From sequence record OP688485: DNA of 64,000 bases; one strand, written 5' to 3'. This DNA is from Escherichia phage EP_H11. A model generated the notes under the pieces. That model did not search any database. It was not told the origin of the DNA and worked only from the letters and a program-made list of their open reading frames with translations. The position numbers and the translations under genes are program-made. Shown here piece by piece: positions 38,110 through 40,307 of the stretch. Within the stretch, counting starts at the first letter, position 1; every line of letters begins with the position of its first letter.

Positions 38110-40053
38110 ATGGAAAAAGTCGCTGCTCTGGTAGAGCAAATCAAGAATGCGGCTAATGCATATTATAATGGTGACCAGCCCATTATTACGGACGAAGAGT
38201 TCGATGCTCTTACCGAGAAATTAGCTGAGCTGGACCCTAATAACCCACTCCTTACTACCCCAGGCTGGGGTGTAACCGAAGCTGCAGAACATCTGGCTAA
38301 GTGCCCACATGGCTCATTCGTGGGTGGTCTTGACCAGGTTAAGATCGGTGCTGTGGAAGAGGGATTTAACTTCCTCCATGGCCACGAAGAAGTTAAGGGA
38401 TTCGTTGCTTCAGCTAAGCTGGACGGTATCTCGGTAGTTCTGTATTACGACTACGACGGTAACTTCGTCCGTGGTTTAACTCGCCACGATGGTGTATTTG
38501 GTCTGGACATCACGAAGAATCTGGAGTGTGCAGAATTCCCTCGCCAGATTCCTAAAGGTATTAAAGAAGTCCGCTGCGAAATCGTTATTCCTGATGATAA
38601 GTTCGAGCGGATTAGTCACGAGTACAGTAACCAGCGTAATGCTGCTTCTGGTATTGCTCTGGCTAAGTATAGTGATCCTGCATTAATGGAACTGCTTGAT
38701 GTAGTTGCATATTCGGTAACGGCATTCTACGAGGATGTGGATCACGAGACATGGATGGATGACTACAACCAGCTTCTGCTGTGCTTAAGTAAGGCTGGGT
38801 TCAAAGTAGTTAAGTACTTCGTTCTTCCAGCAGGTTATGTCAATAGCTGGCTGGTTGCTAACCCACCATCTAAGTTCCGCGAAGATCCAGTCTGCAACTA
38901 CCTGCTGGATGGTGTAGTTCTCGGATCTATGAATGTTGACTGGGATGAGAATATGTTGGGCAAGAATACTGTCCATTATAAGATCAAGTATCAATCAGCA
39001 TTCTATGACACCACCGTGGTTAAGGTGCACTGGGTAGTTAGCGGTTACGGCCGAGTCGTGCCTACTGTTGAGTTCGAGACGGTAGACATGAGTGGCGTTA
39101 ATGTAACTTATGCATCCGGATGGAATGCTGAGTATATCAAGAATGCTGGTATCGGACCTGGCGCTAAGATCAAGATTAGTCGTCGTAACGAGGTAATTCC
39201 TCATATCGAAGAAGTCGTGGAACCCGTCACTGCGGTGATTCCAGAGTTCGTAGATGGGGTACGTACCTTCTGGGATGGTGTACACATCCGCATCAAGACC
39301 AAGCTTGACCCGATGGTGATTCGTACCATTATCCGAGACTTCGCTCCTAAGGGTCTAGGTGGCGTAAATATCAATAAGTTTGCTGAGCAGGCTAAACTTG
39401 ATGACATTTCCATGTTGAATGACATAATAAAGACTGGCCCATCTCATCCGGTATTCGGCATGGTAGAGATGTACGATGGTCCTCTCCAGCTTACTCGTCA
39501 GTCCTTCTTCAATATGAAGGAACGTCCTACCTCTATGGACCACATGCTGACTTGTACCTGGACGGATGGTCTTGGTTATGCTACAGGAATGCGTATTGCT
39601 ACTGCGGTAACCCGTGACCAGATGATTCGTGTGCTGCGTAACAATAGCTTCCACGACATGGTTAATGACGGTATCCAGGTCAATACCGAGGACTACGAAA
39701 TCTGTAAGGCAATATATGATGCCTGCATGGGTTCCGTAGCTAAGAAGATTGCAGAGAATCAGGAAGTAATCCTGAAGGTGCTGAATCTTCCTCTGAACTG
39801 GGTAGCCTCTAAGGTAGAGGAACCGCTTCCGGAAGGTAAGTTCAAGATCTGCTTAACTGGTAAGCTTAGTAAGCCTCGTAGCGAACTGGTTAACTCCTGG
39901 ATCAAATACGGCGTAGTCGAAGTCGGTATCGGCGACGCAGAATATCTGGTATGCGACAAGCCGAGTCAGTCCAGTAAGTTTAAGGCTGCCGAAGCTAAGG
40001 GTACCAAGATCGTTACCGAAGATCAATTCCGTAAAATCATTGGAGCTGAATAA
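38110..40053 (+). CDS. ligA: NAD-dependent DNA ligase
   Basis: Domain Ia-like N-terminus YYNGDQPIITDEEFDAL, adenylation lysine motif AKLDGIS, C-terminal BRCT-like KICLTGKLS..YLVCD..SSKFKAAEAKGTKIVTEDQF. Confidence 0.9.
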   Translation: MEKVAALVEQIKNAANAYYNGDQPIITDEEFDALTEKLAELDPNNPLLTTPGWGVTEAAEHLAKCPHGSFVGGLDQVKIGAVEEGFNFLHGHEEVKGFVASAKLDGISVVLYYDYDGNFVRGLTRHDGVFGLDITKNLECAEFPRQIPKGIKEVRCEIVIPDDKFERISHEYSNQRNAASGIALAKYSDPALMELLDVVAYSVTAFYEDVDHETWMDDYNQLLLCLSKAGFKVVKYFVLPAGYVNSWLVANPPSKFREDPVCNYLLDGVVLGSMNVDWDENMLGKNTVHYKIKYQSAFYDTTVVKVHWVVSGYGRVVPTVEFETVDMSGVNVTYASGWNAEYIKNAGIGPGAKIKISRRNEVIPHIEEVVEPVTAVIPEFVDGVRTFWDGVHIRIKTKLDPMVIRTIIRDFAPKGLGGVNINKFAEQAKLDDISMLNDIIKTGPSHPVFGMVEMYDGPLQLTRQSFFNMKERPTSMDHMLTCTWTDGLGYATGMRIATAVTRDQMIRVLRNNSFHDMVNDGIQVNTEDYEICKAIYDACMGSVAKKIAENQEVILKVLNLPLNWVASKVEEPLPEGKFKICLTGKLSKPRSELVNSWIKYGVVEVGIGDAEYLVCDKPSQSSKFKAAEAKGTKIVTEDQFRKIIGAE

Positions 40054-40307
40054 TGTCTGTAACTTTGGAACAGGTTAAAGATGCGCTGCGATCTGCAGTA
40101 GCTGACATCATGATGGTTGATATTCTGGAAGTAACTGAAACTACTACTGGTGAGCAGTTAGGTGCAGATTCTCTGGATGAAGTGGAGATCATCATGCGTG
40201 TTGAAGATGAACTGGGTATGGAAGACTGTATCCCAGACTTCGACTATGATAGCGACGATACTCTGGAGCAGGTGGCAGAAAAGATCGTGGCAGTTCTGAA
40301 CCAGTGA
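40053..40307 (+). CDS. acyl carrier protein-like protein (84 aa)
   Basis: LGADSLDEVEIIMRVEDELG matches the ACP phosphopantetheine-attachment motif (E. coli AcpP LGADSLDTVELVMALEEEF). Acidic. TAATG-coupled to ligA. Confidence 0.75.
   Translation: MSVTLEQVKDALRSAVADIMMVDILEVTETTTGEQLGADSLDEVEIIMRVEDELGMEDCIPDFDYDSDDTLEQVAEKIVAVLNQ

Follow-up and report, generated by a model that had tools for sequence, protein, structure and literature searches.

The 64 kb of DNA from Escherichia phage EP_H11 (OP688485) analyzed here, referred to as the window, carries on its + strand at 40053-40307 an open reading frame (ORF) for an 84-amino-acid (aa) product, MSVTLEQVKDALRSAVADIMMVDILEVTETTTGEQLGADSLDEVEIIMRVEDELGMEDCIPDFDYDSDDTLEQVAEKIVAVLNQ, which we assign as an acyl carrier protein (ACP) and which directly follows the gene for an NAD-dependent DNA ligase. 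The features of this locus are listed below, with the basis of each call in parentheses.

38110-40053, +: ligA, gene for an NAD-dependent DNA ligase of 647 aa, the upstream cistron (Pfam and PHROG)
40042-40045, +: GGAG, Shine-Dalgarno sequence of the ACP cistron, within the 3' end of ligA (sequence reading)
40051-40055, +: TAATG, with one base common to the ligA stop and the ACP start (sequence reading)
40053-40307, +: gene for a stand-alone, AcpP-like ACP of 84 aa (family, fold, selection and composition)
40170-40172, +: TCT, codon of Ser40, the predicted 4'-phosphopantetheine attachment serine in a DSL motif (alignment and model)
40313-40338, +: hairpin with an 11-bp stem and a UUCG tetraloop but no T-run, 6 nt past the ACP stop (not called an intrinsic terminator)

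Identity and conservation of the ligA-linked ORF

The product is strongly acidic, with 23 Asp and Glu against 4 Lys and Arg residues and a net charge of about -19, and it contains QLGADSLDEVEIIMRVEDELG, letter for letter the motif that a first-pass annotation of the window had quoted from an acidic 84-aa ORF. Upon carrying out the HMMER comparison that this annotation had proposed, we obtained 32.4 bits for Pfam PP-binding (PF00550), above its gathering score of 20.8 (E = 1.1e-7), and the PHROG 5934 'acyl carrier protein' profile matched at E = 8.1e-9, with residues 6-83 aligned to positions 13-89 of 93. The top NCBIfam matches were AcpP-type models, covering the full length at E = 4.5e-9 and scoring under their curated cut-offs, and the DltC and AcpM models were far weaker. 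The best score for the housekeeping AcpP equivalogs (TIGR00517 / NF002148-51) was 36 bits vs 71, TIGR00517 itself giving 30.4 vs a cut-off of 70.45, and the equivalog of the D-alanyl carrier protein DltC gave 20.4 bits vs a cut-off of 68. Because these NCBIfam scores lie well under the curated cut-offs, we regard the product as an ACP but not as a housekeeping AcpP equivalog. In a phmmer search against PDB, 60 of 60 among the matches listed were ACP chains (best E = 2.4e-7), the top ones being mitochondrial and bacterial type-II ACPs, with E. coli AcpP at 1.6e-4. An AlphaFold2 model built on a five-sequence family alignment (pLDDT 81) has helices at residues 5-20, 43-54 and 71-82, with the helix III region as coil, and Foldseek against PDB returned ACPs for 50 of 50 among the matches listed, at TM 0.5-0.72.

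The similarity is greatest around the predicted attachment site, where the first-pass annotation had read a near-AcpP phosphopantetheine helix including the DSL serine, a reading that the alignment bears out. The phage helix II, DSLDEVEIIMRVEDEL, is identical at 9/16 and similar at 14/16 positions to that of E. coli AcpP, DSLDTVELVMALEEEF, a sequence consistent with the 1acp match in the PDB search. Ser40, within GADSLD, aligns with Ser36 of E. coli AcpP, lies three residues N-terminal of the modeled helix II and is invariant in 5 orthologues. In AcpP numbering, D35, S36, L37, D38, E41, M44 and E47 are kept and E48 is replaced by Asp; these are the contact residues in the AcpS-ACP complex and in complexes of ACP with enzymes of fatty-acid synthesis (FAS). 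The corresponding phage residues D39, S40, L41, D42, E45, M48, E51 and D52 are invariant among the orthologues. Overall, judging from profiles, helix II and modeled fold, 40053-40307 is a genuine stand-alone type-II (AcpP-like) ACP gene.

The closest cultured relative of the source phage, and the only close one, is Escherichia phage vB_EcoM_IME392 (MH719082), at 93.7% nucleotide identity. Its ACP ORF (L001 15054-15308 = MH719082 6797-7051) is 100% identical and unannotated in GenBank, where the record holds just 85 features over 116 kb; EP_H11 is named alongside IME392 in PMC12686479. A word-indexed search of 5.8e9 proteins returned four relatives of the ACP at 77-92% identity, and the order PolX - LigA - ACP - small ORF - PinA-like is kept in L002 and L003, the two contigs that were read. 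In an HMMER pass over 1.84e9 representative proteins, nothing but the ACP's own cluster scored below 1e-10; the next match was at 2.8e-8, and the remaining ones were generic ACPs and carrier domains. Scans of IMG/VR with the ACP alignment and with the ligase gave no relatives, and a JGI metagenome scan with the ACP alignment gave generic ACPs only, mostly at <=50% identity, with no orthologue and with matches of >50% identity confined to short helix II segments. By the measure of these searches, the ACP forms its own, tiny lineage. A comparison with the 78%-identical L002 orthologue (Nei-Gojobori) yielded a nonsynonymous divergence (dN) of 0.135, a synonymous divergence (dS) of 0.875 and an omega of 0.15, next to 0.06 for the ligase and 0.03 to 0.16 for eight neighboring genes; the ACP gene is under purifying selection. 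Furthermore, its GC content and its GC content at third codon positions (GC3) are typical for the window, and its codon-adaptation index, calculated with the window's own genes as the reference, is 0.78 (window mean 0.69, sd 0.04). The composition of the ACP gene is native to the phage, and its codon adaptation is high.

At the junction with ligA, the stop codon TAA occupies 40051-40053 and the ACP start codon ATG 40053-40055, as the first-pass annotation had claimed in noting a TAATG overlap, and a Shine-Dalgarno sequence was found in addition, its GGAG lying 7 nt upstream of the ATG. IME392 (L001) and two metagenomic relatives, L002 and L003, have the GGAG unchanged, and all three likewise have the TAATG, an arrangement typical of translational coupling. 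The ACP gene is the distal cistron of a ligA-acp pair in the genome's replication arm, with a Shine-Dalgarno sequence of its own. The ligase is assigned by Pfam DNA_ligase_aden (7.6e-20), DNA_ligase_OB (3.2e-13) and Nlig-Ia (2.9e-7) and by PHROG 3869 (7e-89). Two antisense ORFs, at 40037-40195 and 40158-40382, were dismissed, as all genes of the arm are on the + strand and the family matches fall in the + frame. One extra nucleotide in L003 (9973-10228), close to ACP codon 14, puts the N-terminus into another frame, and the start is called 28 nt further downstream; this could reflect an error of assembly or natural variation with loss of the ligA overlap. The hairpin at 40313-40338 is possibly an RNA 3'-end, stability or processing element.

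Partner search and genomic setting

We searched for enzymes that could load or use the carrier by scanning with Pfam the window ORFs of at least 50 aa with ATG starts, except two RNA-polymerase subunit ORFs (50 ORFs singly and 45 small ones in batch). These scans returned no ACPS/phosphopantetheinyl transferase (PPTase), ketosynthase (KS), acyltransferase (AT), AMP-binding, condensation, thioesterase or Fab family, in line with the first-pass annotation, which had recognized no synthase, acyltransferase, adenylation enzyme or PPTase in the window. No AMP-binding or MBOAT family that could represent a DltA/DltB-type partner for a DltC reading was found among the scanned ORFs either. Beyond the window, where a search for PPTase or adenylation genes had also been proposed, Pfam found no PPTase, KS, AT or AMP-binding family in the 19 non-structural ORFs of IME392 that fall outside it, and with E. 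coli AcpS or B. subtilis Sfp as the query, tblastn gave nothing below E = 1 against the window and the whole IME392 genome. The neighbors of the ACP are PolX, LigA, the PinA-like gene and small ORFs, with no fab/pls neighborhood among them. Read from these scans, the phage appears to be without a recognizable PPTase or ACP-dependent enzyme, an absence that holds at hidden Markov model sensitivity only, because several ORFs have no family match.

Among the latter, ORFs 7262-8170 and 10261-11295, the two best candidates of the modification island, have three or four homologues each, all from Logan read-run assemblies and none with a Pfam domain, and profile searches against PDB sequences with both were empty. 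For ORF 7262-8170, which lies 32 kb from the ACP, no ATP-grasp match was obtained by Pfam (E up to 10), PHROGs, NCBIfam or PDB profile search, and the AlphaFold2 model (pLDDT 41) was too low in confidence for a fold search; because the searches were empty and the model was unusable, the label 'ATP-grasp-like' for this ORF comes from motifs read by eye only. ORF 10261-11295, with IIPTYHR and DDD motifs, looks by eye like a GT-A glycosyltransferase, which is unconfirmed, and ORF 11343-12422 has only a weak glycosyltransferase-like match. An NCBIfam 'holo-ACP synthase' match on ORF 42313-42849 (E = 0.016, 15 bits vs a cut-off of 149) was discarded as noise; this ORF encodes a DUF115/PHROG 4603 protein (7e-37). 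The 77-aa ORF downstream of the ACP (PHROG 7644) was rejected as an ACP-linked gene because it is found in many small phages that are missing from the ACP tblastn hits.

The genes of the window lie on the + strand up to about 59.6 kb. Positions below are from Pfam assignments, with scores or other bases in parentheses.

87-2174, +: SbcC-like (Pfam)
3080-6315, +: topoisomerase II subunits (Pfam)
6420-7160, +: methyltransferase (Pfam)
8174-9556, +: BCCT transporter, full length, of the betaine/carnitine/choline type (Pfam, 1.6e-91)
9643-10254, +: PIG-L deacetylase (Pfam)
12422-13393, +: 5-hydroxymethyldeoxyuridine (5-hmdU) DNA kinase (Pfam, 4.4e-35)
14202-15275, +: ThyA-like, hydroxymethylase candidate (Pfam)
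16258-22208, +: primase, helicase and PolA (Pfam)
31244-31765, +: RNase H (Pfam)
32054-32560, +: Acb1-like (2.9e-6)
36542-36562, +: terminator-like hairpin upstream of the orf123-PolX-LigA-ACP stretch (9-bp stem, then TTTT)
37287-38045, +: PolX (Pfam)
40582-41001, +: PinA-like Lon inhibitor (3.6e-9)
41565-41584, +: terminator-like UUCG hairpin with a T-run (hairpin/terminator scan)
41609-42316, +: DUF7217 (Pfam)
42313-43448, +: two DUF115/MptE-like genes, Maf- or sialyltransferase-like, PHROG 4603 and 2111 (Pfam and PHROG)
43414-45002, +: glycosyltransferases, GT1 (PHROG 2518) and a further one (PHROG 1962) (Pfam and PHROG)
53010-53669, +: NADAR-domain protein (7.4e-27)
56040-57404, +: dUTPase and dCTP deaminase-like (Pfam)

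The arm of the ACP also contains split RNA polymerase subunits, as taken from the IME392 annotation, and a tRNA search of the window found none. The hairpins at 36542-36562 and 41565-41584 bracket orf123, PolX, LigA, ACP and the PinA-like gene, and the second of them parts the ACP stretch from the DUF7217/DUF115/glycosyltransferase cluster. Intergenic hairpins with a UUCG tetraloop occur on the + strand at 2177-2198, 6321-6342, 33420-33437, 40313-40338, 41565-41584 and 47654-47677; some have T-runs and are terminator-like, and those at 40313 and 47654 share TATAGG...CCTATG without a T-run. These hairpins may be phage-specific RNA 3'-end or processing signals. The Acb1-like, PinA-like and NADAR genes of the same arm are candidates for counter-defense or host interference.

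A thymidine-hypermodification island spans 6420-15958 of the window and also holds family-less ORFs of 302 and 344 aa, a glycosyltransferase (GT)-like ORF, a dNMP-kinase-like AAA_28 protein and an HD nucleotidase. The presence of a BCCT transporter within such an island is unusual and suggests the import of a small-molecule building block. At L015 3033-6937 (Logan SRR21194222), a 61-71% identical relative, six other ORFs replace the island methyltransferase between the topoisomerase A subunit gene and a 303-aa ORF, one of them weakly phosphatidylserine-decarboxylase-like; because this island carries six different ORFs, the modification chemistry may vary within the clade. The L002 contig runs on for 0.9 kb beyond DUF7217 without the DUF115/GT genes. 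The family A PolA of the window (18921-22208) has 1095 aa and matches the RP13 and Ab1-TPeters PolA proteins at 30-33% identity across 84-98% of its length. According to a 2025 paper, a long PolA (>900 aa, with a uracil-DNA glycosylase-like N-terminal domain) defines 'RP13-like' phages with proposed hypermodified thymidine; IME392 is listed as one of them, and the group is proposed to carry a bulky, sugar-bearing thymidine hypermodification (PMC12686479). The source phage is an E. coli myophage and falls into this IME392 / 'RP13-like' group, in which hypermodified thymidine is either present or predicted.

Upon permissive tblastn with this ACP and the phiXF1 ACP as queries, annotated ACPs were found in many large phages. 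The present gene falls into the PHROG 5934 orphan-ACP class, combining the profile match with a stand-alone gene that has no adjacent synthase or PPTase, as in six other phages, and the helix II pattern DSLD..E..M..E is kept in phiXF1, phiRSL1, pf16, Motura, fHe-Yen9-04 and helene 12B3. The phiXF1 ACP sits between gyrB- and gyrA-like genes, in a phage that shares PolA, ligase and topoisomerase homologues with the window; the phiRSL1 ACP starts 3 nt past an RtcB ligase gene; and those of pf16, Motura, fHe-Yen9-04 and helene 12B3 lie amid tRNAs or small early genes or beside a helicase. Salmonella phage CRW-SP2 (OR464140 144696-145010 = L014 4872-5186) encodes a 104-aa ACP-like protein in which DDL replaces DSL. 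The tblastn hits fell in 93 records of Salmonella phages, and the one inspected was the Ackermannviridae record of CRW-SP2; from its sequence, the protein appears to be ACP-like but without a prosthetic group, and conserved in Ackermannviridae, a thymidine-hypermodifying phage family. When the ORFs around seven other phage ACPs were compared all against all by BLASTP, no neighbor recurred beside the ACP, and none was shared with the ACP region of the window. Besides the ACP, phiXF1 and the window shared replication genes, pf16 and the window shared a NADAR homologue, and pf16 and CRW-SP2 shared two proteins, which in CRW-SP2 lie about 4.5 kb away from the ACP-like gene. In the more distant, ligase-bearing phages RP13 and Ab1-TPeters, there was no annotated ACP within 5 kb either side of the ligase, and the ACP tblastn, with E allowed up to 10, hit neither phage.

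Possible roles of the carrier

Phage ACP homologues have been described as auxiliary genes of 'function unclear' (PMC5463345; PMC13573597), and a preprint predicts an interface between a phage ACP and host FabZ (10.64898/2026.03.01.708874). We tentatively favor the reading that the EP_H11 protein is a host-dependent holo-carrier acting on or through host AcpP-client enzymes. The host PPTase AcpS would convert the phage ACP to its holo form at Ser40, a dependence that we infer from the conservation of the helix II contact residues and from the lack of a PPTase among the phage ORFs scanned. The holo-ACP would then act through the host AcpP-client enzymes, as a recipient of their acyl groups or as a rival of AcpP for them, and its role would be one in host takeover or auxiliary metabolism and not as part of a phage-encoded synthase. 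A host-dependent ACP of this kind, standing outside any synthase, would therefore be one of the recurrent orphan ACPs of large lytic phages. The conserved helix II is compatible both with a hijacking of host lipid synthesis and with AcpP mimicry, and the evidence cannot separate a carrier that draws on host fatty-acid synthesis from a competitor or decoy.

Several observations weigh against the host-dependent carrier. The identity to E. coli AcpP is only 38% over 56 residues, the AcpP-type NCBIfam models reach 30-36 bits vs cut-offs of 66-106, and helix II is followed by a 2-residue insertion and an acidic DFDYDSDD stretch. Housekeeping ACPs serve about ten FAS enzymes and are normally far more conserved, so that this divergence would fit a dedicated partner better, and family-less ORFs able to hide such a partner are present at 7262-8170, 10261-11295, 22571-23482 and 23475-24926. 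Moreover, AcpP is already very abundant in E. coli, and an extra carrier hence offers no obvious gain.

A dedicated carrier, which we consider unlikely, would receive an acyl or aminoacyl group from a phage enzyme that escaped recognition and would serve to decorate hypermodified thymidine or a glycan, for example by N-acylating an amino sugar that the PIG-L deacetylase has freed, by analogy with BtrI/BtrJ/BtrH of butirosin synthesis. The phage does possess a thymidine-hypermodification island (5-hmdU DNA kinase, ThyA-like, PIG-L, GT-like, methyltransferase and BCCT genes), but the ACP lies about 30 kb away from it in another gene block. A second, DUF115/GT cluster is present as well, yet terminator-like hairpins divide the ACP from it, and L002 has the ACP but no DUF115/GT genes in the 0.9 kb of its contig past DUF7217. 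While the divergence from AcpP somewhat suggests a specialized partner, and the four family-less ORFs named above and the weak phosphatidylserine-decarboxylase-like gene that the island of the relative L015 adds also speak for this role, the ATP-grasp reading of ORF 7262-8170 consists of motifs seen by eye only. IME392 is among the RP13-like phages, for which a sugar-bearing hypermodified thymidine is proposed (PMC12686479), but RP13 and Ab1-TPeters have neither an annotated ACP within 5 kb of the ligase nor a tblastn hit, and the presence of solo ACPs in many other, unrelated lineages of large phages may count against this role as well. The first-pass guess of a carrier for the modification island thus gained no positive support, with its supposed ATP-grasp ORF matchless and the ACP 30 kb away. 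In its most specific form, the ACP would be a thiol-template carrier decorating a sugar-bearing hypermodified thymidine or a glycan, with a loader such as 7262-8170 and a PIG-L-exposed amine as the target; we deem this improbable, but if it is true, DNA base hypermodification would gain its first known step that depends on a carrier protein.

We are also doubtful that the protein is a phosphopantetheine-independent AcpP mimic or decoy that binds a host AcpP-binding protein (PlsB, MukB, SpoT, IscS or Lpx enzymes) or that, in a variant of this idea, titrates AcpS or coenzyme A, either way contributing to host shut-off. Such a role would suit a protein with a net charge of about -19 in which the helix II surface is conserved and the remainder has diverged, in a neighborhood rich in host-interference genes (PinA-like Lon inhibitor, Acb1-like, NADAR). 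Apo-ACP overproduction is toxic in E. coli, and the best PDB sequence matches include mitochondrial ACPs, which are structural subunits of complex I. Furthermore, the Ackermannviridae ACP-like protein has DDL and no serine, indicating that phage ACP-like proteins can work without a prosthetic group. By contrast, Ser40 and its DSL motif are retained here and in six other aligned phage ACPs, Ackermannviridae apart, although the orthologues, at 77-92% identity, are too close for serine invariance alone to inform.

An accessory factor of the ligase or replication machinery, co-translated with LigA as joint actors, is very unlikely: although the ligA stop/start overlap is identical in IME392, L002 and L003, and other phage ACPs adjoin nucleic-acid enzymes (RtcB in phiRSL1, topoisomerase subunits in phiXF1 and, following the ACP, a helicase in helene), start/stop overlaps are common throughout this densely packed genome, the 1-nt insertion at about codon 14 in L003 uncouples the called start, no ACP is annotated next to the RP13 and Ab1-TPeters ligases, and an ACP and a ligase are not known to act as partners.

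Relation to known carrier proteins

Partner-less ACP genes are scattered through large phages. PHROGs already catalogue the family, and the gene resembles its many counterparts in behavior; in itself, the finding is unsurprising. For IME392, the only close GenBank relative, the finding fills a missing annotation. As the host is E. coli, in which AcpS, lipid genetics and the interactome of AcpP are open to experiment, the phage offers a possible model system for deciding between a carrier, a decoy and a hidden-pathway role of phage ACPs.

One system to which the ACP can be compared is the butirosin pathway. Its BtrI is a stand-alone ACP that carries an aminoacyl unit destined for an amino sugar, together with BtrJ (an ATP-grasp ligase), BtrK and BtrH; the parallel would be a functional analogy only, with no BtrJ-, BtrK- or BtrH-like enzyme demonstrable here and no clustering with the ACP. 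The CRW-SP2 protein is likewise phage-encoded and has an ACP-like helix II (DLDVIEVVMELEDEY), but its N-terminus is longer and Asp stands at the position of the attachment serine, whereas the ACP of the window keeps the serine. With E. coli AcpP (TIGR00517, PRK00982), the phage protein shares the predicted fold, the position of the DSL serine, a near-identical helix II and extreme acidity, while it differs in being virus-encoded, without fab context, below the equivalog cut-offs and limited to the partial identity given above. The closest likeness is to the orphan phage ACPs of PHROG 5934 / 4154, among them phiRSL1 ORF083, phiXF1 gp111, Motura gp339, helene 12B3 VPBG_00241, fHe-Yen9-04 g153 and pf16 gp58: these too are small acidic PP-binding proteins with a DSLD..E..M..E helix II, encoded amid early, replication or small hypothetical genes with no PPTase or synthase partner nearby. 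Unlike them, the ACP of EP_H11 belongs to a lineage of its own, with 36-49% identity at most over partial lengths, carries the 2-residue insertion and the DFDYDSDD stretch, and uniquely overlaps the gene for an NAD-dependent DNA ligase. Overall, it is a divergent new addition to the catalogued orphan ACPs of phages.

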